From contig QPGO01000003.1 in NCBI GenBank assembly GCA_008632985.1, positions 620,001-684,000 of the forward strand: a stretch of 64,000 nucleotides of DNA, written 5' to 3'. The position numbers and the translations under genes were made by a program. The DNA is from Psammoneis japonica. Lineage: Eukaryota. Positions 23,800 to 51,717 of the stretch are shown here, piece by piece. How positions within the stretch are numbered: position 1 is the first letter of the stretch; every line of letters begins with the position of its first letter. The notes below the pieces were generated by a model. The model had not been told where the DNA came from. It saw only the letters and a program-made list of their open reading frames with translations, and made no database searches.

Positions 23800-24220
23800 C
23801 TCACTGGTAGACAGCTGGAGCCAGTGGGACATGGAATGAACCATCTGCACAAGGACACATGTGCCGGATTTCACAAGTGGTTAAACTGCTGCACCAAGCT
23901 GCATGGGATGCACAGATTCAGCGCAAACTGCTGAAACAGTTTAGGAGTGGTAAAGAGACTCTCAAAAACATCAGCAAAATCAACGAAAGAGCAGCCAGGC
24001 ATGGTCAACAGCTTCCAGAAAACACCAAATGTGCAACCATGTGCAAAGACAGAGACTCTGTCAACATGGCTTTGTTTGAAGAGAGAGCTGGGAAGTTGCA
24101 CTGGAGGGATGGAGGAATCTTGGACTCTGACTTTGGAGTGAGTGTTGCTCAGTTGGCAGACAACAAGTTGAAGCTGAAAGCTGACAAGCTTTGTGAGGTG
24201 TGCAAAGCAAGGGCTCTGGA
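23800..24220 (+). pseudogene. Decayed PIF1-family helicase fragment (Helitron-like relic)
   Basis: Across a frameshift it reads G-RQLEPVG...WLNCCTKLHGMHRF...LLKQFRSG...INER...KCATMCKDRDSVNMALFEE, resembling PIF1 motifs III-IV. Expected Tyr positions read His or Cys. Confidence 0.55.
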
Positions 24221-24869
24221 GCTGCAAAGAGCAACAGCTGCCAGCACACCCTGCAAAGAAGGGCTGCTGGGGTTGTGGTTGCTTGTGCCCAACAATCTTT
24301 CAAGCCATGCCATTGAAGTTTCTGGTCTTGCACCAATGACTGTGCTGACCATGCAACTGGCCTTCTTCTGCATCCCAACCAAGGAAGGCTTGGGAGGGCA
24401 CATTTAAGGATGAGCCAATCGAGACAAAAGGAGGTTGCACCTGTGTCTTGATGATGACAAAAATCTCACGCTTGTTTGAAGTGGCAAAGTTGCTGGCAAA
24501 AATGCACAACTTCATGGTGCAAAATGCCAAGCATGCTGAAGGAGCAAAAAGGCAAAGAGCCAGGCCAGCAAAGGACCTTGGCTGCTCAAATTTCTGCTGC
24601 TTGCTGGGGGAACAAGGGATTGTTTGGGGGTTTGCAGCTGTGCAGCACACCCACACTTTCAAGAACTGGTGGGACAGACAAATCCATGCTGCTGTTTGGA
24701 TCAAGGATTTTCCTGTTGGGAGCAGGGCAAAGCTGCAGACAGCTTGAGGGGGTGGGCAGTGCACATGAGAGAGGGTCTCTCATGACCCTGATTTCATGGA
24801 GAAGCAGCCGTGCATGGAGGAGCACTCATGTGAGCTCATGCATGACCTGCTCATTCCTTCTTGTTGCAA

Positions 24870-25285
24870 TTTTCCCTGAGTCCTGGGTTCAAGACACTGC
24901 CACAATTCTTTGGGGCAAAATGGCAAGAAATCTGGGGTGCACGGGGGGCGAGATGGGCAACATGGTGACATGAAAGTGCGGCGCACAAGTTTTTGGTGGG
25001 TCGCTGTGTTTCCCAGAGTCCTGGGTTCAAGACGCTGCTGTGGGCAATCTTCAGGGCAAAAAAGCAAGAAATGTGGGGCACATCAGGTGTGTCAGGGAGC
25101 AAGATGGGCAACCTGGTGATGCAAAAGTGCAGCGCCAGTCTTCCGCGGGGGCACTGTGTTCCCCAAAGCCCCGGGTTTGAGGTTTGAGGCACTGCTCCTG
25201 TGGACAATCTTTGGGGCAAAAGAGCAAGAAATGTGGGGTCCATCGGGGGTGAGATGGGCAGCACAGTGGTGCAAAAGTGCAGCTC
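24870..25285. repeat. Tandem repeat of about 140-150 bp x3
   Basis: The motifs gagtcctgggttcaagac, gggcaaaa..gcaagaaat and agatgggca recur three times. Confidence 0.8.
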
Positions 25286-25741
25286 GAGCTGTGCAGCTCG
25301 AGTTTTCCACAGGCTGCTGCAGCATCATGCAGCAGCACAGGACAGCAGTCAGCAGCAGCGACACAGAGCCCAGTGGCTGTTGCTCTGGGCTGGAGCTTCA
25401 TCGCACTGGCTCTGCCAGATTCTCCCCTGTGGAAAACACACTCATGATCACTTTCACAATGGAATGAAATGGCATGAAAAGTCATTGTGATCACATCATG
25501 CTGTGTCAACTGGTGTGACGACAGACGAGTCGATGTGGTCGGTTCATTCATTTCATTCATTCATTCACGTCACAGAACTAAAAGGTGTGGAACTTTTTTA
25601 TTTTTGAGATTGCGTCGCGTCCCGCGTTCATCCATTCTTGCTTCAAGTCCATGGCAACCGCAAACTCACACTCGTGCTCGCATCGTGCTGCTTGTGACTG
25701 TTTGTCAACACATCTTTCTTGTTGTAGAACTGCTTTCCCCC

Positions 25742-28312: not shown

Positions 28313-31300
28313 AAATGTATTTTGCATTCCATCCTCTTGCATCAATCACACTGTATTTTTTGTAGTTCATTTCTTTTGAAGACCGTTCATCGTGTCATGG
28401 TGTGTTTTTCGCTTTCGTCCAAAAAAAAAAGTCTGTCTGTCTCTCCGTTTTTGAGTCGTTCAATTCCAATCACGAATCGTCGCGGCTCGCTCTGCTCCGC
28501 TGAAACTCGTCCACTGGTAGAGAGATTATCCGCCTCGTGAGTGTAATGTGTCATTGGTGTGCGTTGTCATGGACATGATGTGGTTGATTTTTTATGTTGA
28601 TGCATGGGTTGAATGCCGACTGATTGTGAAAATCCTCATTGACATTGCTGCTGCAGCCACAGGCACTGTTGTTGTTGTTGTTGTTGTTGTTGTTGCATGG
28701 CTGTTGTTGTTGCGTGGCTGTTGTTGTTGTGCTGCACACTTTGTGCCAATGGTGCTGGAGGTGCAAATGCCAGTTCATCCTGTGTGAAATTGGAAGCATG
28801 ACTTGCCAAACTCAACAATGGCAAGGGACAGCCACAGGCTGCTTCCAGGATGTCTCTTTGTTGTTCACCGCTGGTGTGAGAAGCTGCAATGTTTTGGGAG
28901 ATGCAAACACAGGAAGGGGGTCCTTTGGCGATGCTTGCATGGTGGAACACAAAGATTTTAAAAATGCAACAAGAAAACAAATGCTCAAGATGGCAGTGGA
29001 GCAATGCATGAGTTTGCAACACACCAGGCAGACAACAGGTCAGCCAAGTTTTCCTGTGTTGTTGATTTTGCATCAAAAAGACAGAAACAGTGACAAAAAT
29101 TGATGCAAGTGATGCACACCAGACTGTGGTCATGGCCAGCACCAATTCTCCATTGCATGCTGGATGCATGTTGCAACTGGCTTGTTTCCATTAAGCTTTC
29201 CTTTGCCACCTTGCTCCCCATGTGGTGTGCCATGCAATCTCATCCTCCACTGCCACAAAACAATGAGACACCCACTCATTTTGCCATGCACAGACTGTTT
29301 CCAAGCTGAGCTTGCTTGCTTTGATGGAGCTTTGCAAAGCACACACACAGCATGATGGCAGGCTTGTTCCAGATGCCATGCACAGACTGTTTCCAGGCTC
29401 AGAAAGGTGTAAGACAAGCTGAACTTGCCTGCTTTGATGGAGTTCTGCAGGGCACACACACACAGTGTGATGGCAGGCTTGCTCCAGATGCAGGTGGGTG
29501 GGAACCCATGTGACATGGGGCACACAGAATTCTGCATGCGAGCTCCACTTTGAAGTTCTTGTCAGGCAATGCACACATCAATTGCAGCCAACAGAAACAG
29601 AAGAAATTTTGTGAGAGTGCACAAACTCACCTGGGTTTGAAGTGCACCAATTTTTGTTTGCCCTGGTAGCAGGTTCTTTGGCCACTGAAGAATGTTCCTG
29701 GTGCATCATTTTTCTTGCAAATGTGCTGAGAGGGGTTTTTCCCTCATTTGTCCCAAAATTGCTGTTGCACTTGAATGAGGACATTTGCAAATGCAGCCAT
29801 TTTGAGCACAAAAATTGCTCCAATTTGCAACATGTTGCACACAAAAATGAGGACATCAGGCACCACAATCAAAGCACAATGATGACATCAGTTGTCAATC
29901 TTTCTCAAAAACAGTTTTAAAATGCAACACATGCTCAACAAATGTCCACACATGTTTTGGCAACACATTTCAACATTTGGCAATTCTCCTCCAGTCGCAA
30001 CGGCGACAACATTTCTGCATCAGAGACAAGACAAACAGAGCCAGATGTCCAGAGACTAGTGCAAAACCAGTTGTCCAAGAAAAGACAAATGGAAATCTGC
30101 TTCAGCTCCAGGTGGGACCTTGCACTGCTGTGCTGTGATCTTCTGCAAAATTGTGGCAATTTTTTCATGTTCGTGGCCGGTTAAAGGAAAAGAGAAAAAA
30201 AGAGGGGAATCAACCGTTGAACACACACACACAATTGACCATGCAACCATGGCCAGAGTTGCACTGGCTTCTTTTGATCCAGGGTGGTTGCTGCAGGTGC
30301 AAAGAGTGGGGCACATTGCAGTTGCAGGAGGGTGACAATGTGGCACTGAGTGTGTGCCACCAGGCTGAGCAGCCCAGCTTGGGTGTCAGCCAAGCCCTGC
30401 CAGGCCAGCTGCCCTGGCTCCAGCTGCTCTTCCCAGTGTGCGTGAGTTGTTGAAGGAGCACCACATTGACTCAAAGGCTGTGTTTTAAGTGGGGCAGAGA
30501 GAAAAAACTGTTGTCTTGGCTGGTGCTTGCTTCAGACCCTGCATCATGAGCGCAAGCTCCTCTTGAGAAATGAGCGAGAACAGCCATTTTTGGCGCCTCT
30601 CTTTGGTTGCGCACTTGGCATTGCCAACAAATCTTGAACCAAACTTCACTCACAGTTTCTTCACTCTTCAACCACAAAACCAGGTTCAACTTTTTGTTGG
30701 CTTCTTTGTGGCTGGGGTCGCTGTTGCAGGCACAAATGGTGGGCACATGCCATGTGGCTGCTTGGCAACAAGAATGTGATGCCAAGCATGTGCTGCACAC
30801 CAAGGAGCCAAGCAGCCCAGCCCAGCTTTGAATGGAGCCCCAGGACAGCAGCCAACTCTGGGTGATCTCAGCATGGTGTGCTTGTTTGGGCTGTGCTGCA
30901 CTCACCCCACAGTGCTCTGTGTTGTGGTGGCTTGTTGTGCAAGCCGTGTGGCTGAAGAGCCAGCAGCCAGCCAGGGCCCATCTTGCAAAGGCCACACATG
31001 TTGACCCTGTGCAAAGCTGTGTGAGGGGGCAGGCACAGGGATTTGCAATGATGGCTTCACAGCCATTGGCCCCAAGTTGGCATTTGATTGGGAGCCAGTG
31101 CTGAGGGGCTGTGAAGTGTGGGGTTGGGAGCCCAGCCAGCTCGCACTCTCTTTGTTGTCACAAAGTGCTGCCACAGCTGTCTTTGCATTGCAACCAGCCA
31201 GGTGCGGTTGACCCCAAGTTGGCACTTGATTTGGAGTGACTGCCAAGGAGCTGTGAAGTGTGGGGTTGGGCAGTCCAGCCAGCTCACACTCTTTGCTGAC

Positions 31301-34300
31301 AGCAGAAAGCGCTGTCGCAGCTGTCCTTGCGCACACATGGCCAGAGCAGCCTTGGCACATCCTGCTGACAAAACTGACAAAGACAGCGACTCTTGTGGTT
31401 GAGCCACTCAGCACGCAGGAGATCTGGGCACACTCCTGGGAAGTCAAACAGGAAGGAGGGCTGAGCATTGCCGCCAGTGCCAGGCACAAATGTCAGCTTG
31501 TCTTGAGAGAGATTCGAGCCCACACAGCCCCGCGTTGGGCATCTTTGCTGGCAAAATGGAAAGCATTCTTGAGCACATTCTGGCATGTGGGCAGCACTGT
31601 CACCAAGAGGGCTGCTCTGCAGAGGAAGAGGGAAACAGGCAACAACATTTTGCAAGAACTGTTTTGTGTCAATGGTCGGGTGGGATGTGGCAGCATCTGG
31701 ACTTTGATGGAGCATTTGGCGGACAAAGCTTGAGCACAGAGAGTTGTCCACCCAAGCTCCACAAGTGGCACTTTCCAAAGGTGACACCACACATGGGCCA
31801 TGTGTTCATGCATCAACATGCCTCAAGCTGCAAGTCACACAAAAAAACCACCACCAACCTTTCAGCCAACCACCATCATGGACAGAACAGGTCAAGAGGT
31901 TCAAAACAAGAGCGATTCATTGACTCTCTTCTGGTTCCATGCATTCAAGAGCTTCTTGTCCTTCTCAAATGTTTGTTGTGCATTGTTGTCTCTTTTAATT
32001 CAAGTGCAAAGAGGAGTCACTTTTCTTGTTTCCATCTCTTGAGATGTTGTTGGTTGTTGAGTGATGCAACTTTTGTTGTCACATTTTTGGAAATGTTGGC
32101 AAACCCGATCACTGCTTGATTGTCAACCCATTTGCTGTTTTAAGTCTCCATGGCATAAAATGCCATAATTCCAGAGCCCTCAATTGTTTCATCAAACGCA
32201 GTGCTTTGAAACACGTCCAACATCAACTCGACTCAGTTGAAATCCCAGTTTGTGGGCGATGAAAAATCACGAATGTCAAACAAATGGCTACTTTCGACAT
32301 CAAGATCCCCGAGTTCAATCCAAATGTGACGGTACGCCTCACAGCTTATGGCCATGACACATACAAGCATGCCTCATTGTCATCGCGTCGAGCACTCGTA
32401 TCGAAAATGCCGATAGATCAAAGTTCAGGAAAAGGATGGAATACAAATTCATTTGTGTATTCATTAGTGGCATTGGCGTAATGATATTTACGGCAGAAGC
32501 AATCTAAAATCCTTATTCATCATTGACATTTCTGTATTGCTCAGATTTTGAAATCTGACCACTACCGTTAAGCATTTAGCTGTCTTTGTATGGAAGTGGA
32601 AATGACACTTAACGATTTACACTAACCATTTAGCTTTCTTTGTGTCGAAGTGGAAATGACACTTAACGATTTACACTAACCATTTAGCTTACTTTGGCTC
32701 GAAGTCAGACAAAGAGATTGGGCTATGGGCTTGTCGTTAACCAGCCACGAGCATGAAATCTTTACCAAAATTGTTCCACACTCCCTGTTTCGCAAAGCCA
32801 AATCTTTCCATTTTTTGCATGATTTGTGCAAATTTGTGAGAATGAAATGCAGCTGGGTGTGTTCTCAAATGTGTGAAGAATGCACCCATGCAAACTGCAA
32901 GCAATGTGCTTCAAGTGTGGAGGAGGAGATGAATTCACAAAATTGCCTCTTTTTCTGTTGGTGATCATTCGCACATTCTTCATTGATGATTTTGCTGTCA
33001 AACTCACATGCAAAATTCTGCAGGCCCAATGTCACACACAGTTGGCTCCATTTTCAAACACCCAATGCCATGAACAATGTGTGCCTGTTCCACTCTTGCA
33101 AAGCATTGTTTTGAAGAGTGGGAGAGACTGACAATGCTTGTGTCTTGTGCACGTTGTGTGGCTCCAGAACAGGGTTCAAAGTCTGGAGTTGTTTTTTGTC
33201 AATGACTCAAAGCATGTGGTTTTGGTTTCATTTAGAGTCATGACTCATTCAGTTGAACAGGCCAGCAGCTGTTCCTGACTTGCATCTGTGCACATGGCTC
33301 ATTTGCAACACACCACTTTGCAATCCAACACATGATGATGGTTTTGGTGTTGCAGCTCATCGTGGGAGCATTCACTGTCTCACAGTTTGTGAAAAAAAAA
33401 ACTGAACATGTTGTGTGTTGGCTGCATCATTTGCTGATTTGCAGCATTGTAAAAAGGATGTGGGTTGGCTTCAGTCAATCCAGAGTCTTGTTGTTGAGCA
33501 AACTGCTCATCTCTTCCTCCCACATTTGGTCATTGCGAACAGCTGATGCTGGCACCTCCAAGAAGGGAACACCGCACATGCCACAGAATCTGGCAGCTCT
33601 GCAGCTCACAAAAGAGTTTGTCCATTCCTGCTCTTCTCATCTCTGGAGCCTTGCCACTCTCTGTTCTGGCCAGAGCAGAGAGAGAGAGAGAGAGGACACA
33701 TGTCATGCACAGAGTGGCTCCTGGTGCGATTGAATGTGCAGCTTGCATTTTGTGTTTGAAAGCTGCTGCCACTGCTCCACTCCTTGCACTGGTGACTCCA
33801 CAGACAGTGGGAGTGTGGAGAGAGAGGCTGTGGGGGGCACAACAATGCCAGAGCTCAGTGGCTGAGAGAGAGCTGCACCACAGACGCACAACAATTGCCG
33901 ACAATTGATGATTCGCTCGGTTCGAAATCGGGTGCTGAGCTTGTTGCGGACAACTGACAATGCATGTCAGACACTGGTGTTAAGAGGCAGACTCTAGCTG
34001 CTGAATTGAAAAAATTTTGACATTGAAAAATTTGCGACAGATTCCGAATCCCTGCACAATCGCCGGACGGTGAGTCGCAACACCGCGGCACACGACCTTG
34101 TCACACTCTCCATCCAAGGTCATCTTTGTGGCATGGGCAACATCCTCTGGTGCAATTTAAGGTGCAGGCATTCTTTTTAGTTTGGTCAAGAAAAGACATG
34201 ATGCACAAGAAATGACAAGAAATCATTGTTTTCAAAGGAAGTTGCCTTCTCGTGATGGCAGCACATGCCGGCCTCAGCAAAAATGACCTTTTTGGATGAT

Positions 34301-36472: not shown

Positions 36473-38533
36473 GGTCGACTGCTGAAGTCTTGTCGCTAAA
36501 GTAGCTACTGTCAAAAACTCCAAGACTGCGGTGTTGCGTGCTAGTAACGCGAGCGTAGACGTCTCGTATGATTCTACGTGAAATCAAATGTTTTATATCT
36601 TTTCGTTCATGAATACGATCATCCACATCCGTTGCTGCTCTTCACTCCAGCTGACAAACTTGTCGCGCACTGCCTGATGGATGGTGTTGACAATGGTGCT
36701 TGCAAATGCTGCAAGTGATCCACCCACCACAAGAGGTTTTGTTGTGAGACAAGAACAGGATGCACAGTGAAAGACCAACAAGGTGAAAGCACAAAACCAA
36801 CCTCTTTGATTTGGGGTGACCCAAGTGTGATTCATTGCACCCTGGCAACACTTGCGGATTTTTGCCAAATTTTCAATGTTGCCATTTTGCTCCCATGTTG
36901 TCTCTGTGTGTTTTCTGCATGCACAATTGTTTGTGTCAACTCAGCCAGGGGATCCCTTTTGCTGCAACATGCACCTGACAACTGCACTGCTTCTTTGTGA
37001 ACGTTGGGTGAGGCAGCAAAGCCGCTTCGAACAACACAATGTGTGCACCGGTGCATGCAAGTGTTCTTGTTGAGCTGCAATGCCTTGCAAGGAATGGATT
37101 GAAGGCCCTGAGGAACTGGTCAAGCTTGCATGTGCAGTCAACCTGAATCCTGTCCTTGATGAGAAGAAAAGGGAAGACCAGCAATTGTTGAGAAAGTTGT
37201 GAAAGATGTGGTGGGAAGGTCAAAAGCAGCATGGAAGCAATTGACAGCAACTGGATTGAAGCTTTGTGCAAAAAACCATTTGCCTGCAAGACAAATTGAG
37301 CAGGCACCACTCCTTTCATGCCAGCCATGCACAAACAGAGCTGCTCAAACAGACACACTCTGCGGCCAGGCATCATTCGCTTGGCCACCCCCCAAGGTGC
37401 AGCATCCGCAGCAACTGCTCTTGCACTTGAGCCACAGAGAGTTGGGTCTTTTAGCCATTTCCAAATGATTGCCAGACACGCTGCAAAATCCAGAGTGAGT
37501 GGGCTGCATTCTTGTCCAGCACCTGATGAAGCCCTTGACAACAGTTTTGCCACACCCAACAAGATGAGAAGGTGTGTGCTGTGCAACATTGAGAAAAACA
37601 GTGTTGACATGCCAGCTGCACCCCACCCATTGCACCAGAATGCAACATCAGTGCTGCTGGTGTCAACACAGCCAAGAAAATGATCAACCTTGTCTCTGTG
37701 GCAGACATTTGGAAATTCTTTGGCTGTTTTGCTTTTGTCTGCTGCTTGGGGGTGCAGAAACATTTTGCAATGCCAGCAGCATCATGGCGGGGCAGCTCAA
37801 AATTTTGTGAACAAGCTGACAGCTTGGGGTCACAGGGCTCAGGCAGATGTGGAAGAGGTGGAGTGCACAAAAGAGCAAAATTGTCAAGATCAGCTGGAGC
37901 AAAGTCAAGGCAGAGCCAACCTGCGCTTCCTTGAGATTCACCACTGGCAGATGTTCCATCCTTTTATTTTCCAAAGCTTGGATTTTTTGGCGAGCTTTTC
38001 CTTCTCTCTCAAGCTTCAGTTTTGCAGTCTCAGCTGCCTTGTCATCCAAGGCTGTGCTGTCAGGGGTGCCATCATCCTTGGCAGCAGCTTTGCTTCCCAT
38101 CTTGGGTGCTGAAGTGAAGACCATTGTGTGCAAACAAGCCTGCCCCCAGTGGCACTTGCAGCTGCACATGCAGCATTGCAAGGCATTTTGCTCACCCAGA
38201 AGCTCCTCTTTCAGCTGAGCAATCATCCTGCACAAAGTTGACACTTTGAAGTTGGGTGCAAAGATGCAGCCCAACTGACCATCCTTGACAGGCTGAATCA
38301 GCGACTCACGCAAGGCACAATTGTCAGAGCAAATGATGCCACAGTTGGGGCCAGGGTTGTGGGACATGGAGAGCTCATCTGCCAAACACAGAGCAATGGC
38401 AGCAGCCAACAAAGCAACAGCAGCATGTGAGAGCATGTGGTGCACTGCAATGATCAACTGCCAGCGCACTCATTCTGAGCACAGTGCCTTGGCAACATTC
38501 ACTTTTGAGCAAAAGCAAAAAATGTTCTTCATG

Positions 38534-38980
38534 TGCAGCATGCATGCAGACAAAAGGTTGTTTTTGTCACGCCCTTTGTGACATTTAAAGGCTGCAACAC
38601 GTCGCCGTGACACATTGGCTCTCATTGGCAGCTGTGTGTTGCACTCCTCCCCATGTGTCACGCGTCCATGCGGCTCTTTACTGACGTGTGCTGACACTGC
38701 ACGGTTTTGGCGGAACAGTGTGGGCACGTGCGAAGGAACGTGCAGAACTGCACAGAGTTTTGCGCGTTCGACAGTGATCAACGTTGCTGCAAACAACTCC
38801 CACTCAGGGTTTCGAACCCCTGGCCTCCTGCCTGATGGTTACGATGAACCACTCCGCTGTGAATTCACAACGCAGCATGCATGCAGACAAAAGGTTGTTT
38901 TTGTCACGCCCTTTGTGACATTCAAAGGCTGCAACACGTCGCCGTGATGCGTTGACTCTCATTGGCAGCTGTGTGTTGCA
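38534..38980 (-). mobile_element. TRIM (miniature non-autonomous LTR element): 110-bp LTRs at 38534-38643 and 38871-38980, 4-bp TSD CATG
   Basis: Direct repeats with 6 mismatches and TG...CA ends on one copy. The PPT catggggaggag on the minus strand abuts the 3' LTR. CATG flanks at 38530-38533 and 38981-38984. Confidence 0.85.
38795..38866 (-). ncRNA. tRNA-like (Pol III A/B box) cassette inside the TRIM
   Basis: Minus strand reads cagcggagtgg (A box, TAGC>CAGC) and ggttcgaaacc (B box) at tRNA spacing. The cloverleaf is imperfect. Confidence 0.55.
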
Positions 38981-40566
38981 CATGAACTGGGGATGTTGGC
39001 AAAGTGGTTGAAAGGGTTGGCTTGTGATCATGCCAAGTGTGCCAACAAATGTGCAACCCTTGAATCTCTGCTCACACAAGTGGAAGAATCGCTGCATCAC
39101 ATGCAATGATCAAGAGCTGCACAAGACATGTGGTGCCATGAAAAAGTTTTGCAAGAAGAGGCTCATGCACATGACCAGAACATGGCAAAAGGCAAGTGAC
39201 CTGCTGGCATGAATGCTGCAACACTTGTCTCTGGGCACAAGTTTGCTCATTTGCTGTGCGTTGGAAAACAAACATTTGAGCAACAAGCTGCTGCATTGCA
39301 GTGCCTGTTTAACCTTGCCATGTGTGCAGACAATCTTTTGGAATTTTGGTGCAGCTTGCAGCTTGCAGCTTGCATTTTGCATCTTGTCAGATCATTGCCA
39401 TGCCAACAGCTGGCTTGCACCATGAGCCAGCAAGACAAGCATTGCCAGCACATGCAATGTGATCATCCCAAAGGAGATTTTCAACCAAGCTCATTTGAGC
39501 AACAAGAGCTGAGTGCTGCTGAAGCTGGCATGATTGAAAAATGGTGCAGCAACAGAAAAACAAAAATGCTGTTTCCACCACACCCAGAGTGAACAGATGT
39601 CATCTTTGCCTGCTGATCTGAGCAAATGCATCAGCTCTCATCTCATGAGGAAGAGGGCAGCAGAACACAAGATGACAGTGACAACAACTGAAGGCTGATG
39701 AGAACAATTGCAAAAGAACCCAGAGTGACAGACCTGAACAATAAAAGTGCTCTTGCTTGCAAACAAACAAGAAATGAGCTGCATTGTTTGGAAGCAGCGA
39801 ATGGACAAGCAATCTTTTTTTGACAAATTTTTCTTCTTGCTCCACTTGCACAGTTCTGTGTGACCCATGCTGCTGAAAGCAGGGATGATCGTGCCATCAA
39901 ACAACCATTTGCACTCCTCAAGCCCACTCACCCAACCCATCATCTTGACCCCACCATCATCTTCACCATCACATGTTGTGCTGGGAGGACAGTGCCTGGA
40001 TTGCTCCATTCCCTGCAAGGGAAGACTTTCTTGCCAAGTGCCAGGAGAAGTGAGTGGTGACAGAGCTCGTGAGACTTGGACAGGGAAACCAAAGTGTGCG
40101 TTTCAAATCATGACCTGCGTTGGGACAATGACTGCACTGCTCCAAGGCAGCATTCAAGTGATCAAACTCATCGACGTGCTGCTGCCACTCTGCCCTGCTG
40201 GCAATGGCTCTAGAGAGAGGATGCACTGTGTTGAGGTCAATTGGATCAAGGCAACGCTTGCCTTGCCACATTTCTTTTCTGGTGGTTGGCCTGTGAGCAT
40301 TCATTGCTCTCCAGAGGGTGCTCCATCCAAAGCAAACAGAGGAGTTGAGAATGCGTCTCGGCTGCAGCAGAGGAGGTTTTACAGTGGCACGCCCTGATGT
40401 CAGCTTTCAAGAAGGAAAATCGAGAAGCCATCCGAACGTCATGCGGACAACAATGTTTGGTTTTTGACATTCTTTCGAAACAAAAACATGCAATGGAACT
40501 GTTGCCAGCAGGACAGTGTCAATCACTTGATCATCAATCGTTCAAAATGAACACAAAAAATGAGAG

Positions 40567-41266
40567 CTACACTGCGCCCAGTTTGTTCACTTTTTCCATC
40601 ATCTCGGCTGCCGCTTTGGGTGCGGACTGTGCAAAAATGTCGGGAGCCGCAGACGATCCGCAAACCTCTTGATTGATGGAATCGGCACCATGAATGCTGG
40701 ATGTGGAAGGAGCCGCCCCAACAATGGGCATGTCGGAAAAGCAACAACAAAGCAACGACGACAGCCCCTTGTCACCAATGGAACCACCGACCGAACCGGC
40801 CTGCAGACCACCACACTTGCCGATGGAAAATCCCGCATCCATGCCAACCTGCATTTTTCTAGTGCCTTCTGTCATTTGCAAGAGCGCTGCTTCATTCAAG
40901 GCAATGACAACCTGCTTGTGCTTGCATCCAATCACACCAATCTGAAAGGACGTCATTTCGCAAAACATGGGAGCAGACCAAGAGCCGTCCTCTTGATTTT
41001 GCTTGACAATGACGCCTCTGCCGCCTGCGAGAGAAACAGATCAAAGATGTGATGACAGTGCGTTTTAAACAATCAGCAAGAGTCTCCCACATTGCTGTGC
41101 AATTGCGTTCAAAACAAAACACACTGCACTCACCACTCCCAGTGAGAACAAGGCCAATGTCTGTCACAGCAATGAGGGCAACTCCAGCGCACTTTTGAAA
41201 CACGGACGGGTCAATCTTGTCACACCGATCCACCGCACTGATGGCATTCTCAATGTGCGACTCCAT
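40567..41266 (-). pseudogene. SYLF/Ysc84 (DUF500) domain gene, exons 41266-41134 and 41024-40567; frame intact but TpA-stripped
   Basis: The spliced product reads IDPSVFQKCAGVALI...LTGSGGRGVIVKQ..DGSWSAP...INQEVCG. Intron GTGAGT..GCAG at 41133-41025. No Tyr in about 196 aa. Confidence 0.65.
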
Positions 41267-43918
41267 CGTTGCTTGTTGTTGTCATTGTTGTCATCGTGGG
41301 CTGGATTTTTGCTCGCGTGTGAAGCACATTGTTGTTGCTTTTATTTTGAATTTTGTGTCGCAAAATGTTCCCGGAAATTTCGAAACGCGTGAAGAATCGG
41401 ACGGATTCGACAGACAGGCAGACAGACACTTTGTCTGCATCTGTCTAATCTTCTTGCTGGACGACGCAACATGTCCCAAATCAAATCTGATTTTCAATTT
41501 GGGCAGATCACTGGTGTGCCGCAAAAGCACCATCGTTCTTGTTGGCTTGTTTTCATGCTTGCACGCTGCTTGACTGCGATGACAAGAGCATTTTTGCCTT
41601 CACAATGAGTGCTGCTGCTGCTGCTTTTGCAAAGAAAAGAGAGCCCTGTTGCAGAGACAAATTGTGAGTGCTTCTTCTTCTTCTTCTTCTTCCAATTGGT
41701 GTTGCACACTCCACTCATGCATTCTTGTGTTCTGTCAGAGTTGCAAACTTGACACTTGCCATGGCCGCTGCAGCTGTCTTGCCAAGAAAGGAAATTCACA
41801 CAGTGGCTCTGACAGCTGCAGAGCCGCTTGTTCTTCAAAGGTTGCAGCAGCTTGGTGTCACCATGATGACAGTCATGGGGAAAATTGAGTGCACATGACA
41901 AGGGAAAGGTCATCAACAATGTGCAAGCTGTTGCTCAATGTGGCGCACAGACCAAAATCTTTGTCCCTGCAAAGTTCTTTCAAAAGGATTTCTTCTTGAC
42001 AAATTTGCAAAGGGGCTGCAGAACAAACACACACAGGTGTCCATGATGTCATGCAAATGTTTGCAGGCTGCCTCTTGACATTGGTGTTTCTAAATAAAAA
42101 CACATGAAGTTGGGCAAGATTTCAGCAACCAGCCAAAAACAATCAGGAGTTGGCAGATGAGATGGGCTTGCAGTGCGGCATGCACAAAATTCTTGACTGC
42201 AGCAAAGGAAGCCTGAGCCCAGCAAAGAAAGATGCTTGTGAGTGCTTTCTCAGGAGCAATGGCCAAACATGCATCCTGTTGAGATGCCAATCTCAAGGAA
42301 CCAGCTGCAAAGCCATTGCCACCAAAGTCCATTCTCAGAAATGAGCCTCAAGAGATGCCTTTCCTTTTCATCTAACTTGGCAACAACAACAGTGCCTGGA
42401 TGCCACATGCATCCACATTTGTTTGAGACGCTGTTGTGGTGCTGAAATTGAGTCAGGAATGGACACCTGAGGTGTTGGACAGAATGACTGATGGCAGGTG
42501 TAACAATGCTCTAGAAAATGTGGGTCATGAGGCACTCAGCAATGATGCTGACCCCACAAACCATGGGGGTGATTGTTGAACAGAGAAGGTCTTTTTGTGT
42601 GCAGCATTTCACCACTCTCAGTGCAAATGCTTGTTTGAGCACTGCATTGCTCACATGTTTTTCTGTTCACAAGTGTGTGCTCAATTGTTTTCTTTCATGA
42701 GCACTGTTTTTGCATGTGTTTTTGGTGGACCTCAAGAATTGCACATTTGACACAAAAGTCCACATTCAACAAGCCCATCTGCAGTGCATTTTTCCTGTGG
42801 CTGAAATGTTGTCAGGCACACAAGCCAGCCACAACAAGAATGGTGCTTCATGTTGCACCAGCAACAAAGCCCTCTTGTGATCAAATCAGTTGCTGCAATT
42901 GTGCCAATGTTTTTCTTGTTGCCACAAGGTGACAAAAATTGTTGAGCCATCATGGGCACTTGACATTTCATGGTGCACGTGGGATGAAAAAACAATGCAC
43001 AACTCTCGTCCCCCACTCTCACCCTTTCCAGCTCTGACAAAGATCAAGATTTGGTGCCCAGAAGGGCAGCTAAAAAGCCCACGCATGTGTTTGTTGCATT
43101 CTGAGTGGCTCAATGCTGTCGCATCCGTTGCTCTTTGACACAGCTGACACTTGGCATGCCACATGATGGGCCTCTCTGCAAGTCCACGTTGTGCAATTCT
43201 AAAACACACGCGTGGCACCTGGCATCACGTCCAGCACGTGCTGAATGTGTTTTGGGCCCATTTTTCATTGGCTCGACTTGACAACAGAGCCATGTGGTCT
43301 GATCCCACCATGGCATCCCTGATGTGCAGCTTGCAAATGTTGGACAAGTGATGAACAAACTTCTCCTGACTCTTTTGATGGAAACCTTTCTACCACCCAT
43401 GGTGCCCACCTGTTGTTTGGCACAGTGCAGCATGCCTCGCTGCTGGACAACACGGCGAGACCGTGCATGAGCCTCTTGTGCGTGGCAACGCAGCATTGTC
43501 AACACGTGCCTGGGAAGCACGACCACAGGAGGGCGTGGCTCCAGGTCTCAGGCAATTCCAGAAGGATGCTAAGAGAGCATCCGTGTGAAGCACACTGGCC
43601 CGTCGTCTGGCCCACGATGGTGGCGTGATTCCACACGATGACATCACTCGTGCATGGCACGTGATGGCTTGATTCGCACGATCCACAATGCGAACGCACG
43701 ATCAATTTGGTGCGATCCAAATGCGAACGAACAGGGATTTGGCAAGATCCCCCATTTGCACGATCCCATTTTCTCTGCTCTAAACTAGCTCACAATTTTC
43801 ACAACGACAAAGTCGCAACACATCTTCTTTTTCAGCGCCTGGCACATGCACAGGGCACAGCAATGTTGCTCCCGCATGTTGTGCGAGGCAACAAAATCTG
43901 CAGAAACGAAACTACGAA

Positions 43919-44995
43919 ATGTTGGCAGGACCGACAAATCTTAAAACGACCATGAAGAAGCGGGTTGAGCCACCGATTCTGTTCGCACGGCCAGAGAAGA
44001 AAGAGCTGCAGCAGGGCGAGCACCAGACGTTCAAGCCACGTAACAACCCTGCTGATCCGGACAGTCCAACGCACAAGATGGGCATCCCGCACCTTTCTGC
44101 GGCTGCATGTGAGACACTCCCAATCTTTCTGCGCAACGTGGATCGCGTGCACGAAGGACAAAACATCACGACCGGGCCAGCGAAATTTGCCCTCATGCGT
44201 GACCTGCTGCAGGGTGATGCTCTGACGTCATTTGATGATGCCGCTGACAAGCAGGCATCCCAAACCAACGCTGCGTGCGCAGCATGCGTCGCGAAGCTAA
44301 AGGAAAGCATCTTCCCACATGGGGCGGCACCACTGCAGAAGCGCCATCTGCGGCGCTTCATGCGCAAGCCCGCAGAGGTTTCTGCTCGTGACTGCGCCGC
44401 GAGGGCTGTTGAAATTAACGGCCACATCTCTCAGTTTCCACCCGTGACGGAGGATGGAGAAACACCGGCGCCACTGCCCAATGACGAACCATGCGACATG
44501 TTTGAGTGCGGTGTGCCGAACGCATGGCAGAAGTTCATGACGCTACAGAATTTTGACCCATTGGTGCATGCTGTCGCCGAATTTGCACAGTTCTGCGAGC
44601 GCATCGAGCAGGTCGAGCTCGCCGAAGGTAACCAGGACCAACATGCCAAGGTTCCACACAAGCGGGGACGTAGAACGGACAATCCTGAGTCGTTGATCAC
44701 GACCCAACGGAACACCCAGAAGTCGTGCATGCTGCACGGGATTGACTGTGGACATCATGCGGAGGATTGTCGTCAGCTCAAGCACCACGTGAAACATGCC
44801 AAGACTGGACATTCCAATGACGGAGGCGGCAAGCCTGGTGCAAAACCTTGGAATGAGGAAGACATCAATGCTCTCATCGGATCGAAGGTCGAGGAGTTCT
44901 TTGCCAATGCTCAGAAAAAGCGCAAGGCCCGCGAGGAGGAGCTCAATCACTTCCGCGACCTCAACTTAAGTGATTCCGAAGATTCGGATGCCTGA
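43919..44995 (+). CDS. gag: Retrotransposon Gag-like protein (hypermutated)
   Basis: ORF directly after the 5' LTR with LQKRHLRRFMRKP and a zinc knuckle CMLHG..CGHHAEDC. No Tyr in 358 aa. Confidence 0.8.
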   Translation: MLAGPTNLKTTMKKRVEPPILFARPEKKELQQGEHQTFKPRNNPADPDSPTHKMGIPHLSAAACETLPIFLRNVDRVHEGQNITTGPAKFALMRDLLQGDALTSFDDAADKQASQTNAACAACVAKLKESIFPHGAAPLQKRHLRRFMRKPAEVSARDCAARAVEINGHISQFPPVTEDGETPAPLPNDEPCDMFECGVPNAWQKFMTLQNFDPLVHAVAEFAQFCERIEQVELAEGNQDQHAKVPHKRGRRTDNPESLITTQRNTQKSCMLHGIDCGHHAEDCRQLKHHVKHAKTGHSNDGGGKPGAKPWNEEDINALIGSKVEEFFANAQKKRKAREEELNHFRDLNLSDSEDSDA

Positions 44996-45099
44996 GAAGG
45001 GGGCCGACACGATGCAGGCAGTTTCAATGCATTGGATGAATGTGTGAATGAACAACTGAATTGCCATCGTACACGTGTTGCAGGCCAATCCCGCAAATG

Positions 45100-45625
45100 A
45101 GTTAAAAAGACTCATCTCACTCCAATCTTGTTTGTGGCTGTGAACACTGAACATGGCAAGGGCAAGACTCAAACCATTGAGGCACTGCCAGACAGTGGCG
45201 CCAGCAGCACTCTGCTCGACAGTCGACACTGCAAACGTCTGTGAAGCCATTCAACGGCTGAGACAAACTGGGCTGCGGCAGCAGGCTCGTTTGGCACATC
45301 TGACGACTGCACCGTTAAATTTCGGTTGCCAGAATTGTCCGAAACTGCAGAACTCAAGCATGCCGTCCACGCACACAACGGAAAGTTGGGCAAGTGCGAT
45401 GTGATTGTTGGACGTGACATTCTGGAGACACAAGGCATTGACGCTGTCTTCTCTGAACAGATGACAGAGTGGCCATTGGTCAATGGAGAAGCACCAATGA
45501 GGCACGCAGATGCCACGGTGGAAACCTCCTTCTATCTTCAAGATCCAGAAGCCTTGTCTTTGGAAACCGACCGGATTTCGCGCATTTTAGACGCCAAGCA
45601 CGCGCCGGCCTGCCTCGAAGACAAA
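45100..45625 (+). pseudogene. Retrotransposon aspartic protease remnant
   Basis: ALPDSGAS at about 45182 (from the LLDSGAS motif) and CDVIVGRDILETQGI. Ends near ILDAKH. Confidence 0.75.
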
Positions 45626-46420
45626 ACGCCGAACGCAGCGTTGTGGGAAGCTCCTCCCAAAAAGGCATCGACGAACCTGCGTCACGTGCGTTAAGTGATC
45701 CTGACGTTGTCAGTTGGGTTTGTCAACTGCTTCAGTTTGAACAATTTACTTCTCCTCACATTTGCTCTTCAGCATGTGTGGTCCATTAAAAACTGTTCAG
45801 CAGCCATCATTCGAATTCTCAATGACTGGCATTTGGTCAAAAATTTGAATTTTCGGTCGCCTCAATGGTGCACACAACCATCACACCAGCACAATGTTGT
45901 TTTGCGACGACGTTTTTCATGCCGCCGATGAAGCTGCCGAACCCCGCAAGTGTCGCTGTGTGGCATTTTTTCACCTGTCAAGCCATCTTCCCTGCACCGC
46001 GCGAACCCCAACCCTGGGCACAGCAAGGAAGGGGGGCATTCCCTGACCGAACCCTGCCCTGCACCATGTGAACCCTAACCCTGGGCAGTGCACCCTGGCT
46101 GGAACCCCAGCAGTTGGGAACAGGTGGCCCTGTCCCACCCAGGGAAGGGCGCGGCAGCGACGCCTTCGGTTGGGCAAACACTGGAAAGCTCTGAGCAAAA
46201 CACTTAGAACACGTGCAAAGCCATGGCAACCCCCAAGGGAGCAGAGGTGCTGATCACACCTTGAAGCCGCGAACCCAATGTAGAAGGCGACGTTCATGGT
46301 CCCGCGTCTGCAAGCACACCTGCTCGAGCCCGCGTGCGGCAGGACAGGACCTCTGGGCGCTGGCAAACCACCAGCACTCAGAATAAATTAGATGCTCTGA
46401 TTGGTCCCCAACGTGTCAGT

Positions 46421-46493
46421 GAAAAGGTGAGCTCAGTGGTGGAGCTTCGCCGATCGTAGGACGAGGCCGGGGGTTCGAGTCCCTCCCTTTTTC
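46421..46493 (+). ncRNA. tRNA-like (Pol III A/B box) cassette within the LTR element
   Basis: Acceptor-like stem GAAAAGG/CCTTTTT, D arm GCTC-AGTGGTG-GAGC and T arm GGGGG-TTCGAGT-CCCTC. The anticodon arm is irregular. Confidence 0.65.
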
Positions 46494-46579
46494 CGTGCAC
46501 ACGTGCTTGAACCGGCAACCCGGAAACGGGTTGAGGTCACTTGCTTGACGAAGTCGCCCCACCTACATTCGATAACCCC

Positions 46580-47384
46580 GATAAACATCGCAGAGATAAT
46601 TCCATGGGAGACTCTATGCATAGATGTGATGGGGCCATATAAAATTCAAAGACGCGGAAAGGACACCTTGCAATTATGGGCAGTCACAATGATTGACCCA
46701 GCAACCGGGTGGTTCGAGATTAAAGAAGTGTCTACGAAACGCGCAGACGTCGTAGCAAACGTCGTGGAACAAACGTGGCTATGCAGATATCCGTGGCCAA
46801 CCCAGGTAGTTTATGACCGTGGGACAGAATTTATGGCAGAATTTAGCCAGATGATTAAAAATGACTATGGGATTTTGAAGAAACCCATAAGTAAACGGAA
46901 TCCACAGGCAAATGCCATAGTGGAACGTGTACACCAGACACTTGGTAACATGGTACGTTCCTTTTCAGTACAGGATATGGAACTGGACGAAGATGACCCA
47001 TGGAGTGGCATCCTCTCCGCAGTAGCCTTCGCTATTAGAGCTACGGTACACACGACCACGCGTGCAAGTCCCATGCAATTGGTCTTCGGACGCGATGCGG
47101 TTTTATCTATTGCCTATCGTGCTAAGTGGAAGCACATAGAAACCAGAAAGCAGAAGCTTATCTACTTAAACAACAAGCGTGAAAATCAGAAACGCAAGGA
47201 GTGTCAATATACCGTAGGGCAATTGGTACTTATCAAACAGGAACAATCCTCTAAATACGGTTCTGACAGCTGTGCAGGACCCGCCAGAGTTGTCCGTGTA
47301 TATGACAACGGCACGTTGCGTGTCCAGAACGGAGCGCTGATAGATACGTACAATCTACGGCAGATTGTACCCTATCACCAGTAA
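46580..47384 (+). CDS. Retroviral-type (rve) integrase core and C-terminus, N-terminally truncated
   Basis: PWETLCIDVMGPY, VYDRGTEF and NPQANAIVERVH (DDE triad). The frame is open to a TAA just before the PPT. Confidence 0.9.
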
Positions 47385-48119
47385 GACATCCTGTCACTTA
47401 ACGGCCCTGATCATGGGGGAGTGTGCAGTATGCCTCGCTACTGGACAACACGGCGAGACCGTGCATAAGCCTCTTGTACGTGGCAACGTAGTATTGTTAA
47501 CACGTACCTGGGAAGCACGACCACAGGAGGGCGTGGCTCTAGGTCTTAGGCAATTCCAGAAGGATGCTAAGAGAGCATCCGTGTGAAGCACACTAGCCCG
47601 TCGTCTGGCCCACGATGGTGGCGTGATTCCACACGATGACATCACTCGTGAATGGCGCGTGATGGCTTGATTCGCACGATCCACAATGCGAACGCACGAT
47701 CGATTTAATACGATCCAAATGCGAACGAATAGGGATTTGGCAAGATCCCCTATTCGCACGATCCCATTTTCTCTACTCTAAACTAGCTCATAATTTTCAC
47801 AACGACAAAGTCGTAACACATCTTCTTTTTCAGCGCCCAGCACACACATGGGGCAACAGAGTTGCACCAAGACTGCCACGCGATTGAGCAAGTGCAATTG
47901 TGCCACCAAGGTGAATCGCAAGTGGTTGTGCAATTTGTCCCATTGTCCATTCTGGCACACAAACAGCACACTCGTGAAGCATCAAAAGGTGTGTTGCTCT
48001 TGTCTGGCAGAATGAAGCATGTGAGACCAGACATGAGCATGTGAAAGGCATGCTTGCAATGCACTCCAGCTCAATGACAACGAGATGAGCATCGACATGA
48101 CACAACAAGGAAATTCGTC

Positions 48120-48629
48120 ATGACCAAACACAGTCTCGTGGTGAGCCGCACTGCAGTGGGCACGGTTGTGGGACGCCGCGTCGCCCCGCTCTTCTTCCGC
48201 CATGTGCATGCTGTGTGCATCAAAAGTGCCGTTTTCAAACAACCAAAGACATGGTCTCCTTCCAAATTTGTTGAGTTGACTCCCAAGATGAAACACCTTA
48301 CAAAGTTGGAGAGCTTGATGCTGTGTGGATGCAGGAAGTTGGCATCAATTCCAAATGAAGTTCTTGAGCTGCCAAGTCTTCATTTTCTCTGCTTGCTTGA
48401 TTGCAAGTTGCTTGCAACCACAGCCAAGGACATTGGAAAAGCATCTTACTCTGTCAAAGATGTGTGGATGCCAGCGAAGACTCAAAGGCACAAAAGGAAG
48501 TGGATTGCTGCACAAAAACAAACAAAGCAGGAAGACATTTGCTGTGTCGCCATGACTCACCTGCAGCTCTTTGGCCACATGTCTTGGCAGGTCCGCACAG
48601 TGATGAGAATTTCATTTCATGTGTCTTGA
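48120..48629 (+). pseudogene. Leucine-rich-repeat gene fragment, TpA-depleted
   Basis: LTKLESLMLCGCRKLASIPNEVLELPSLHFLCLLDCKLL fits the LRR consensus. Confidence 0.55.
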
Positions 48630-48799
48630 CAAAAAATCCGGACTCAGTCAAAAGACAGGTGAAAACAAGGAATGAGATCATCCCACTGTCTCACCAGCAG
48701 CATGAGGCAGCTCTCAGGTGAGTGCAACTTGGCAGCTCTCAGGCAAATGTGCAAGTGTCAGGTCGCTGTCTGATTGTTGTCTGTCATTGGTCCTTGCTG

Positions 48800-51350
48800 C
48801 TAGATTGGATCCCATTGAGATTAGAGTGGAGCAATTCTGGTGCAACCGTGAAGACTGGCAAGCCACACATGAGTGAGGTAGAATCCAGTGATGCAATGAG
48901 CAAGGCAAGGAAGGAGAGATGCAACTGTGGCAACTGGCAAATGAACTCCATCACAAATGATGGAGAGCATGCTTGAAGATGACAAGACAATGGATGTTGC
49001 ACGCTGGTTGACTTGATGCTCTTTTGTTCCACCCAAACCAGATTGACCACCAACATCTGTGGGCAATGAACCACCACCACAAGCTGAAAAAGCAAGTCAA
49101 AGATCCAAGACAAGCAAACTTTTGAACAAGGTGTGCAGATCGAACAGAAGCCACTGGCACGATGGCCAAACATGAAGAAAAGATTGTTGGCCACTGCTGC
49201 AAACAGAGTTGAGCACACAGAAGAACAAAGCAGAGCAAGACCTGCTCTGCAATCAGTGGCTGCTCCAGGACCCTCAGGACAGGACCAAATGTTTTGAACA
49301 AAAAGAAGAATGAAAAAAGCTTTTGGCCAAGAGGGCATGTCCTGGCATGGTCAGATGTTTGAGGAAGGATCCAATGTTCCCTTCATGCAAGAACCACTTC
49401 TGTCTAACTTTGGCCACTTGGCAAACACCTCAGCAACAAACGCTGTGCCAGACAGCACCTGCCATTTGCCAGAGAGAGCAGATGAGCATGTGGAGAAATT
49501 TCCCCAACAGCTCCAATGGCCTGACCCCCCACACTGGAACTTCATTTAGATTGCACTGCAGAGGAACACATTGATGACTGGAGGAAAATGCAAGAATGTG
49601 CCTCAAGCAGCCCCTTTGGACCATCTTTTGCAGACTGCAAAGCTGGCTCAAAAAACTTGACAATGGCAGAATTTGACAAGACTCCTGCATGGTTGCAATG
49701 CCGGCAAAGCACAGATGTGCTCCAAAGCATTGGACAAAGATGATTGATGTTGTGACACCCAAGAAGACTGACTTGACACATGCGCCAAGAAGCTTCAGAC
49801 AACAGCCTGTTTGATGCAATGTTCAACCAGATGAACAAGCACTGTGAACAAGCACTGACAAATCAAGCTGAAATCTACAAGGCAACACCATGGGAGGTGT
49901 GCAAAAGCCACAAATGACACTGAGCAACACACTGCATCTTAAACAAGGTGTTAACCAGGGGGACATGTTTTGCCAGCTGCACAGACCAGGAGCAACCAAT
50001 GGTGCAGAGACTCAAGGTCATGCTGCAACAGAATTTTGCATGAGATTCTGCAGAGCAGCAGGGGAGGACATGGTCTTCATGATGACTGGAGCTCTTCAGA
50101 TGCAGGTTCAACATTGCATTTGAACAGCTCACAGAGAATCTGAAGACACATGCATGGCCATCAAGATTCCACCACACAAGGCATTTTTCAAGGTCACAGA
50201 GCAGCACCAGCATCTGGCTGCTTGTCAGCTCCCACACAACAAAATGCCTTGAGCTGAGAGACATGGCATTTGTGCAGAAATCTCTGTCTTACAAAAGGCC
50301 TTTCACTGCATGTGCCAGATTTTTGTTGATGACACAAATCTCCCATTCTTGTCTCAAGACAAGGCTGCAACCTGCAAAACAGTTGTGTCAAGTCCAGGCA
50401 AATGGTGGAAAGGACCCGCCTCCCCACACAGGCTTTTTCAGAATCTGATGACTGTGTGCACAAGTTGACAGGACAAGAATGAGTGCACTGCTCAAGACTG
50501 CCCTGCCAATGAAGCAAATGGAAGAAGTTCTGCCAACTGATGACCAGACAAGGCTGTTCTGGCAGAAGGAATCCGAGTGTGCAGCTGTCAGCATCATGGA
50601 TGGATCTTTCAAAGAACACATGGTGACAGCAGCACCAATGATGTTGGCACCATTGGAGGGACACTCTCACAGGTGCCAAGGTGTGAGTCAGACTCCAGGC
50701 TGACAACAAGACCAAAGTGCACACTGAGGTGAACTGGGGGGCATGAAGTTGCATTGGCAGCTGCTGCCAACAGGCCACTTTTGCTCAAAAGCATGGCTGA
50801 TGCTGGGAACCAGAGTGCTTTTTGTGGCCAAACAGATGACTTGTTGCTTGTGAAGTGCCAAACTAAACTCAACATGAGAAGCAAAGTGTTTTGTTGGCTT
50901 CTCCCAAGTGGACTTTGAAAATGACAATGTTGTCACCTCCAAGAGCACAAGCATGGGTCAACCAGCCATGTCAACAAGCTGAGTGGACCACAATTTCACA
51001 ATGCTGGACCATTTTCAATCAAAATTGGTTTTGTCATGGATCTCTGCATTTGGCCTCATTTTCCACTTCATGTGTGGCTTGGGATTTGTTTTCTGTGTGC
51101 TCTTTTTGAAGCAGCATTGGCTGTGATCCAAGCACCCATTGTGGTGAGTCCAAGTGTTTGTGTCACCATTGAATGGCTCCTTTCCAAGAGCAGCCTCAAG
51201 TGCATCTGTTGATTTTTCCCTGGTGCTGCTGCAGGGCACAAAATGTTTGTTTTGCAACAAGGTTGTTTGGGGCCCAAAAGGCACTTGAGCAGATGACAAA
51301 AAACAGGAACAAAACTTTCCTTCATTTTTGAGACCACACAACATGGTCTC
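48800..51350 (+). mobile_element. Heavily decayed non-LTR retrotransposon (LINE with RNase H) relic
   Basis: PFMQEPLLSNFGHLANT at about 49379, RNase H-like DGSFKEH..TAA at 50599 and DQSAH*GELGG at 50710. Many stops and frameshifts; boundaries are approximate. Confidence 0.6.
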
Positions 51351-51717
51351 TGTCTCTGACTGGAGCTAAAAACCAGTGCAGGGCTCCACCCAGCACCTCC
51401 TGCCCTTTTCCAGATGCTCTGGCACAACAAAGATCAAGAAGGTGCTTGGCACCCCCACCAGAAGGGCGCAGCTGAAACATGCGTGCATGTGTGCACAAAG
51501 AGACACAGATCTGTGGCATGCATTTTTTTGTATTCTGAGTGGCCCAATGCCATCGCATCCGTCGCTCTTTGACAAACAGCTGACACAGAGCCCATGATGG
51601 GATTGGGGCACGGCGGGATGGACCCGCCCGCCCTGCTGCTGGCACAGCATCGTCCGTCTGGCCATCTGCGAGAGCTGCTGCGCGATGCGCAACGCGCTCA
51701 CGGAGGCTCTCAAGCGC

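Follow-up and report, generated by a model that had tools for sequence, protein, structure and literature searches.

Long terminal repeats of one retrotransposon point to post-integration TpA-to-CpA/TpG hypermutation in sharp-edged tracts of non-genic DNA

We analysed a stretch of 64,000 nucleotides from contig QPGO01000003.1 (positions 620,001 to 684,000 of the forward strand). The whole stretch is called the window here, and all coordinates are positions within it. It contains a 4.4-kb long terminal repeat (LTR) element at 43426..47855, whose direct repeats were recovered by a repeat search and by MAFFT. The 4-bp target-site duplication (TSD) ACAG was read directly at 43422..43425 to the left of the element, and the same four bases follow the 3′ LTR at 47856..47859. 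Because ACAG stands on both sides, the two LTRs come from one insertion and were identical when the element was inserted.

The LTRs and reading frames of the element lie on the plus strand, and its parts fall into two compositional classes. The 5′ LTR (43426..43857) is hypermutated and has a rho(TpA) of 0.14, as found by repeat search, MAFFT, composition and ungapped comparison. It is followed by a TpA-poor gag reading frame (43919..44995, rho(TpA) 0.16), which is open from 43784 and was recognized through its homologs; it has no Pfam match. The putative protease region (45245..45694, rho(TpA) 0.15) is also TpA-poor and has no Pfam match either; its open frame starts just after an in-frame TGA, and a D-S-G motif was seen by eye upstream. 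The place expected for reverse transcriptase and RNase H is occupied by a low-copy insert (45701..46540, rho(TpA) 0.19; depth 155–600 versus about 15000). The integrase core and C-terminus (46551..47384), carrying a Pfam rve domain, are TpA-rich with a rho(TpA) of 0.98, and the 3′ LTR (47424..47855, rho(TpA) 0.81) is largely unmutated by MAFFT, composition and ungapped comparison.

No reverse transcriptase was found in this element, and no further copy of the element was found within the window. The family is very abundant in run X1, where 4215 contig pieces were aligned, and 368 of 385 variable places among them are transitions. In other family copies from this run, about 45648 is joined directly to about 46588 with 15 letters between. 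The family as a whole appears to be without reverse transcriptase and RNase H, and would then be a non-autonomous gag-protease-integrase element. The low-copy insert also contains a tRNA-like sequence (46421..46493, plus strand; Rfam RF00005, 34 bits against a gathering score of 29), which scored only in a small-region Rfam scan and was missed by ARAGORN and by the whole-window Rfam scan. Its D-loop reads UGGUG where the model consensus is UGGUA, which would fit a TA-to-TG change.

The two LTRs were compared without gaps (43426–43857 versus 47424–47855, 432 bp each) and differed at 29 positions. At ten of these the 5′ LTR has CA and the 3′ LTR has TA, and at eight the 5′ LTR has TG and the 3′ LTR has TA. 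Six further positions form three CA/TG swaps (at 43840, 43847 and 43851), three differences are of CpG type, with CG in the 3′ LTR and CA or TG in the 5′ LTR, and two are of other kinds. The original prediction had arrived at 29 differences in these classes by manual alignment, and our count was identical. There are only 3 TpA in the 5′ LTR and 21 in the 3′ LTR. The TA state lies in the 3′ LTR at all 18 single TA/CA-TG differences (two-sided sign test, p = 7.6 × 10−6), which agrees with the earlier statement that 18 of the 21 TpA of the 3′ LTR are gone from the 5′ LTR. In total, the 5′ LTR lost 21 of up to 24 ancestral TpA. Because only 2 of the 29 differences are neither of TpA type nor of CpG type, the insertion is young. 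The per-base rate at TpA in the LTRs was about 450 times the background, a rough value that comes from one LTR pair with only two ‘other’ differences. The three swaps sit in the last ~16 bp of the LTRs, adjoining a TpA-free flank. If their ancestors were TA, then the flanking tract extends into the 3′ LTR by some tens of bases and mutation took place in it after the element had inserted; in that case the tracts ignore the borders of the element.

The direction of the change was investigated with outgroup proteins. Tyrosine codons necessarily contain TA. The gag frame has no Tyr in 358 amino acids, while its His and Cys contents are 5.0% and 2.8%, compared with 1.8% and 1.2% in its homologs (14 sequences, 29–43% identity). 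Tyr is found in at least 30% of the 14 homologs at nine columns, and there gag has His six times (CAC or CAT), Cys once (TGC), Phe once and Ser once; at the column where Tyr is present in 14 of 14 homologs, gag has CAC at 44072. We then considered the 82 columns where at least 50% of the homologs share a residue other than that of gag. A CA/TG-to-TA change yields the majority residue at 13 of them, including three His-to-Tyr and two Pro-to-Leu reversions, and a CA/TG-to-CG change does so at 8, while a sham AC/GT-to-AT change does so at only 1. These results bear out the earlier claim that conserved Tyr and Leu codons have been destroyed in the TpA-poor part. A similar result was obtained outside the element: a coding fragment similar to SYLF/Ysc84 (40570..41040, minus strand; identified by Pfam and homolog alignment) lies in a TpA-free block and has no Tyr in 157 amino acids. 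At its three Tyr columns (Tyr in 7 of 22, 15 of 22 and 20 of 20 homologs) it has Cys, with the codons TGC, TGT and TGC. Which base of the TpA is changed follows no simple rule across the three Tyr-to-Cys and six Tyr-to-His changes.

The other half of the element behaves in the opposite way. Among 1895 integrase homologs found, 40 (56–74% identity) were aligned, giving 41 sequences with that of the window. The integrase matches all 43 columns that are invariant across this alignment (the window's own sequence included) and, as the original prediction had noticed, has no stop. Tyr is kept at 7 of 11 Tyr columns, and probable changes by the TpA process are found at 46566 (CAT), 47133 (CAC) and 47271 (TGT). 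A survey of Tyr columns in 120 integrase homologs found only two sequences (P0068 and P0084) with several non-Tyr residues, which is not clear evidence of the process elsewhere. The environmental DNA relatives of the element have rho(TpA) values of 0.56–1.02 (median 0.79; 79 of 79), and none of these 79 contains a 1-kb window with rho(TpA) ≤ 0.2 and rho(CA+TG) ≥ 1.5. In a collection of 5.8 billion proteins, the best identities for the three tested frames were 74% for integrase, 43% for gag and 33% for an FG-GAP frame described below. Thus, the gag Tyr test, the gag reversion test, the intact integrase and the TpA content of the relatives are four independent tests that agree: TA is the original state, the TpA-rich 3′ half is native, and the 5′ half is mutated. 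The predicted direction, TA to CA/TG, is therefore upheld by gag, the SYLF-like fragment, the integrase and the environmental relatives.

TpA depletion is not confined to the element. We mapped it across the window in 500-bp steps and found five tracts. The first (17501..25500) is CpG-poor, has zero TpA in 18501–20500 and stops where the FG-GAP frame (25478–28312) begins. The second (28501..32000), also CpG-poor, begins after the end of this frame; tract edges are close to gene ends, as in this example. A short third tract occupies 33001..34000. The fourth (37001..46540, by composition and the 500-bp map) enters the element and covers its 5′ 3.1 kb, and the fifth is the CpG-poor right flank (47856..51500), with a rho(TpA) of 0.07 and a rho(CpG) of 0.24 over 47856–50000. 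There are 100 TpA in 25,685 bp of tracts and 1122 in 25,726 bp of the remaining DNA, which is an 11-fold depletion. In the tracts, CA and TG counts are nearly equal, rho(CA+TG) is 1.7–1.9, TpA/ApT is 0.08–0.15 and (CpA+TpG)/(ApC+GpT) is 1.5–2.0; in the flanks of the element rho(TpA) is 0.06–0.07. Our correlation analysis showed that rho(TpA) was negatively correlated with rho(CA+TG) (Spearman's correlation, −0.85). By the cut-offs stated in the main text of a preprint on the alga Bigelowiella natans (Mettrop et al., bioRxiv 10.64898/2026.01.13.699255), 26 of 64 1-kb bins are TpA-poor, in runs of three or more. GC-biased gene conversion was considered as a cause and rejected, because ApT is not depleted (rho 0.83–0.85 in the flanks).

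A Pfam search with the 70 frames of at least 110 amino acids in TpA-free tracts left 68 without a match and assigned no known transposable element proteins; the only two matches, both weak, were to Ysc84 and to LRR (E = 0.004). A PDB sequence search with the SYLF-like fragment found nothing. In run X1, there is a paralog of the right flank that lacks the element, and it has CG or TA at several of 12 tested places where the window has CA or TG. In contigs from runs X1 and X2 the element is missing and its flanks are joined (43374 / 47858, separated by 44 letters). Twelve differences from the right flank are listed for these contigs in 47890–47968, every one a transition, and the contigs represent the flanking repeat either as a diverged paralog or as an empty-site allele. 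The old tandem repeats in the tracts show 12 swaps, 25 CpG-type differences, 49 other transitions and 35 transversions, which gives modest support. The stretch most completely free of TpA contains, at 18597–20048, tandem repeats (about 535 bp and about 195 bp, 85% identity), and eight CA/TG swaps are among the differences between their copies.

We also investigated the relation between TpA and CpG. Over 1-kb bins, rho(TpA) was positively correlated with rho(CpG) (Spearman's correlation, 0.70, p = 8 × 10−11), and rho(CpG) in the tracts was 0.14–0.4. Of the two LTRs only the 5′ LTR has lost CpG, at three sites, and gag has five private T or A sites where at least 93% of the family depth in run X1 has CpG. 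Some TpA-free blocks (38501–39000, 40001–41500 and 43001–46500) still contain CpG; thus, TpA loss appears to be faster than CpG loss. A cytosine-5 DNA methyltransferase gene lies at 58785–60598 on the minus strand, 7 kb from the nearest TpA-free, CpG-poor tract, and is in at least two pieces: positions 62–111 of PF00145 match the frame 58955–60598 and positions 236–294 match the frame 58785–59138. Its presence indicates no more than that DNA methylation may occur in the organism.

The survival of TpA depends on its neighbours. Of the 100 TpA remaining in the tracts, 26 are in TTAA and 25 in CTAA/TTAG. ATAT and ATAC/GTAT, which make up 6% and 14% of TpA elsewhere, have no survivors, and GTAC has 2 survivors, compared with 9% elsewhere. 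The three TpA that remain in the 5′ LTR are in CTAA, CTAA and CTAG. Some surviving TpA may be new and derived from later C>T changes, so these counts describe a steady state rather than a pure preference.

These results make it very probable that a DNA-level process changes TpA into CpA or TpG after integration, in sharp-edged kilobase tracts that take in transposons, repeats and further non-genic DNA, while the genes next to them are left unaffected. Its direction, its dinucleotide specificity, the symmetry of its products, its tract structure and its timing after the insertion can be read directly from the comparisons above. The process would act as A:T>G:C at 5′-TA on either strand after integration, so that the 5′ LTR, gag, protease region and insert would have been mutated nearly to completion, and the integrase and most of the 3′ LTR would have been barely touched. 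It may be explained that adenine in 5′-TA is deaminated to inosine, which would be read as G at the next replication; this is the most likely chemistry. CpG loss in the same tracts presumably proceeds via 5-methylcytosine decay, and both losses probably follow one silenced chromatin state. We infer that chromatin guides the process and that it has a role in defence. The original prediction proposed a mutator that is specific to TpA and acts on both strands of double-stranded DNA. Its TpA specificity and symmetric products are confirmed here, but they do not establish a double-stranded substrate, because TpA is self-complementary and action on single strands would yield equally symmetric products.

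Several observations weigh against this interpretation or limit its support. One LTR difference (43710) is an A/G change at ApA rather than TpA, and one family polymorphism (44838) is likewise an A/G change outside TpA. The three LTR swaps could derive from CpG instead of TpA. The family data cover 40 of 388 variable places, chosen by support, and none of these is among the 29 LTR difference sites. The read support comes from one sample (run X1), which is possibly the assembly's own data and hence not independent. Finally, two origins are conceivable for the unmutated island of 1.2 kb (about 46590–47815): escape from the process, or conversion from a family copy that was itself unmutated.

The main remaining doubt is that the pattern is not mutation at all but an artefact of assembly or base calling, in which a base modified at TpA within silenced chromatin would be called as G or C. 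If TpA, a palindrome, were modified symmetrically, one strand would be called as TG and the other as CA; the symmetry, the tracts and even the replacement of Tyr by His or Cys would then be imitated. However, run X1 has contigs of up to 315 kb and a single-copy word depth of about 57–75, which points to accurate reads, and its contigs match the window at the 12 tested right-flank places with about 74–111 of 131–168 summed depth. Family copies in the same run carry TA at the same sites in 14–71% of depth, so TA is readable there. Moreover, the spectrum is the same as that of new mutations in Illumina-sequenced B. natans lines, as given in the preprint's main text (bioRxiv 10.64898/2026.01.13.699255). 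We therefore regard such an artefact as unlikely, with a small probability. A change of thymine rather than adenine deserves more weight, although it too is rather unlikely: the process would be real, and thymine would be attacked, for example by oxidation to 5-hydroxymethyl- or 5-formyluracil mispairing with G. Such modified bases are mutagenic. T>C on one strand is A>G on the other at a palindromic TpA, and the sequence fits the two routes equally well. The authors of the preprint, in its main text, prefer adenine deamination, with an ADAT2-like candidate for which no activity test is given (bioRxiv 10.64898/2026.01.13.699255).

Two other explanations concern the direction and the timing of a real process. 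If ordinary repeat-induced point mutation (RIP) had caused C>T changes at CpA in the integrase and the 3′ LTR, the CA/TG-rich 5′ half would be original. Some family copies do have CA where the integrase has TA (loose-end consensus at 45652), and many have CA or TG at polymorphic sites. Such a family consensus is not decisive on direction, since in a targeted family the majority of copies would carry the mutations. Against RIP, Tyr is conserved in the homologs and absent from gag. The integrase has 56 TpA and 25 CAA, CAG or TGG codons that would be at risk; in a RIP model with about 28% of CA/TG sites changed, the probability of finding no stop is about 2.4 × 10−4. The relatives have a TpA content similar to that of the 3′ half, and no RIP model produces the rho(TpA) of the flanks. 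RIP is thus extremely improbable. RNA editing is hardly better placed and also very improbable. Here, ADAR-like A-to-I hyperediting would have acted on the element transcript before reverse transcription, and it has in its favour the same base change (A>G) and the same 5′ U/T neighbour. However, reverse transcription makes LTRs identical, and the LTRs of this one insertion, with its TSD, differ at 29 positions. Non-element flanks and a cellular gene fragment bear the same signature, and the three swaps at the end of the 3′ LTR suggest post-insertion mutation across the border between element and flank.

A broader version of this interpretation can be offered only tentatively, and we consider it possible but somewhat short of an even chance. 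According to it, the organism is not B. natans, and TpA hypermutation is its main transposon defence, guided by methylated silent chromatin and acting in sharp tracts that cross element borders. It would come near saturation within about 0.5% background divergence, erasing ATAT, ATAC/GTAT and GTAC and sparing TTAA and CTAA/TTAG. If this is true, such a ‘reverse RIP’ would be a recurrent eukaryotic genome defence and not one alga's curiosity, and there would be a sequence signature for finding the enzyme.

The remaining features of the window are mainly cellular genes between the tracts, all with a rho(TpA) of about 0.5–0.6. They include a thioredoxin gene (34750–35613, plus strand), a bromodomain/BET gene (35737–36375, minus strand), a full-length MnmE/TrmE gene in one uninterrupted frame (55188–57125, plus strand) and a gene for an HATPase_c protein (62392–63828, minus strand); the FG-GAP frame mentioned above (25478–28312) also lies between TpA-free tracts. 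An Atlas search with the MnmE protein returned a mixture of eukaryotic taxa. A single open frame of 3462 amino acids (2035–12423, plus strand) is built of tandem units of about 264 bp with self-matches of 73–88% identity. It matches the Pfam PT disordered repeat (E = 6.7 × 10−183), and has a GC content of 58–60% and an ordinary rho(TpA) of 0.49. Where the last TpA-free tract ends on the right, and a short way upstream of the MnmE frame, there is an inverted repeat of ~400 bp whose arms (51718–52117 and 54718–55123) are 83% identical. TpA-rich spots were found at 61501–62000 (57 per 500 bp) and 1501–2000 (47), compared with 10–30 in ordinary DNA.

To our knowledge, regional dinucleotide-specific hypermutation as a genome defence is known essentially from fungi, as RIP. 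The window offers an independent, cleanly polarised case of the mirror-image change, in which the LTR pair, the contrast between mutated and unmutated halves, and the outgroup proteins serve as internal controls, and it indicates that the process can clear whole intergenic tracts. This has practical consequences: the process distorts LTR-based dating, composition-based repeat detection and gene prediction, in which frames stay open as TAA and TAG are gone. It also points to a natural DNA A:T>G:C editing activity.

The process resembles fungal RIP in that it is dinucleotide-specific, transition-only and regional, affects both strands of repeated or foreign DNA, and destroys coding capacity. However, RIP turns CpA into TpA and raises TpA/ApT (ordinary RIP indices are treated in PMC7884421), whereas chemistry and direction are opposite here, TpA/ApT falls and (CpA+TpG)/(ApC+GpT) rises. 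The mutated half has lost TpA, so that polarity and indices are both reversed with respect to fungal RIP. RIP creates stop codons; in the present process TAA and TAG disappear, so that long frames stay open. With ADAR and APOBEC editing of animal retroelements it shares clustered deaminase-type transitions, and ADAR also makes A>G changes with a preference for 5′ U, a preference for upstream U that is noted in the discussion of bioRxiv 10.64898/2026.01.13.699255. The substrates of those enzymes are RNA or intermediates of reverse transcription, not yet integrated, whereas differing LTRs and affected flanks place the present change after integration. Deamination of 5-methylcytosine, with the CpG decay that it causes, gives the same CpA and TpG products in the same tracts; unlike it, the process attacks TpA, apparently faster than CpG is lost.

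The closest counterpart is in B. natans. The original prediction knew of no description of such a process, but Mettrop et al. have described one in this alga (bioRxiv 10.64898/2026.01.13.699255), and our full-text literature searches found no description besides it. The mirror-image, TpA-erasing process was thus reported only in 2026, in one alga and, going by that main text, mainly in integrated giant-virus DNA. In their mutation-accumulation lines, 231 of 302 nuclear mutations fell in integrated nucleocytoplasmic large DNA virus (NCLDV) and virophage regions. All but one of the 231 were A>G or T>C, and all of those were on TpA. The rate was about 6 × 10−7 per site per generation, about 1000 times the background. 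The same source reports 124 clusters depleted of TpA and enriched in CpA+TpG, finds RT (reverse transcriptase) and DDE domains over-represented among TpA-poor coding sequences, and proposes an ADAT2-like adenine deaminase. The main text of the preprint makes no mention of CpG, LTR or retrotransposon, nor of coupling to CpG decay, tract edges within tens of bases or neighbour-dependent TpA survival.

Judged by that main text, the two cases agree in a near-exclusive A:T>G:C change on TpA, which gives TpG or CpA by strand, in its regional nature, in clusters that are depleted of TpA and enriched in CpA+TpG, and in a selfish target, which here is an LTR retrotransposon of a very high-copy family. 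They differ in that the B. natans process acts on integrated viruses, whereas here an LTR retrotransposon, intergenic repeats and a cellular gene fragment are affected. Depletion is also nearly complete here (rho(TpA) 0.01–0.1), compared with 0.45 in the B. natans NCLDV region, and it comes with coupling to CpG loss and flank-dependent TpA survival. The best protein identities of the three tested frames, at most 74%, also speak weakly against the annotated B. natans reference and against any organism whose annotated proteome is public. Set beside the preprint's main text, what is possibly new in the window is the targeting of an LTR retrotransposon and intergenic DNA near saturation, with sharp edges, CpG coupling and survival of TTAA and CTAA, perhaps in a second organism.

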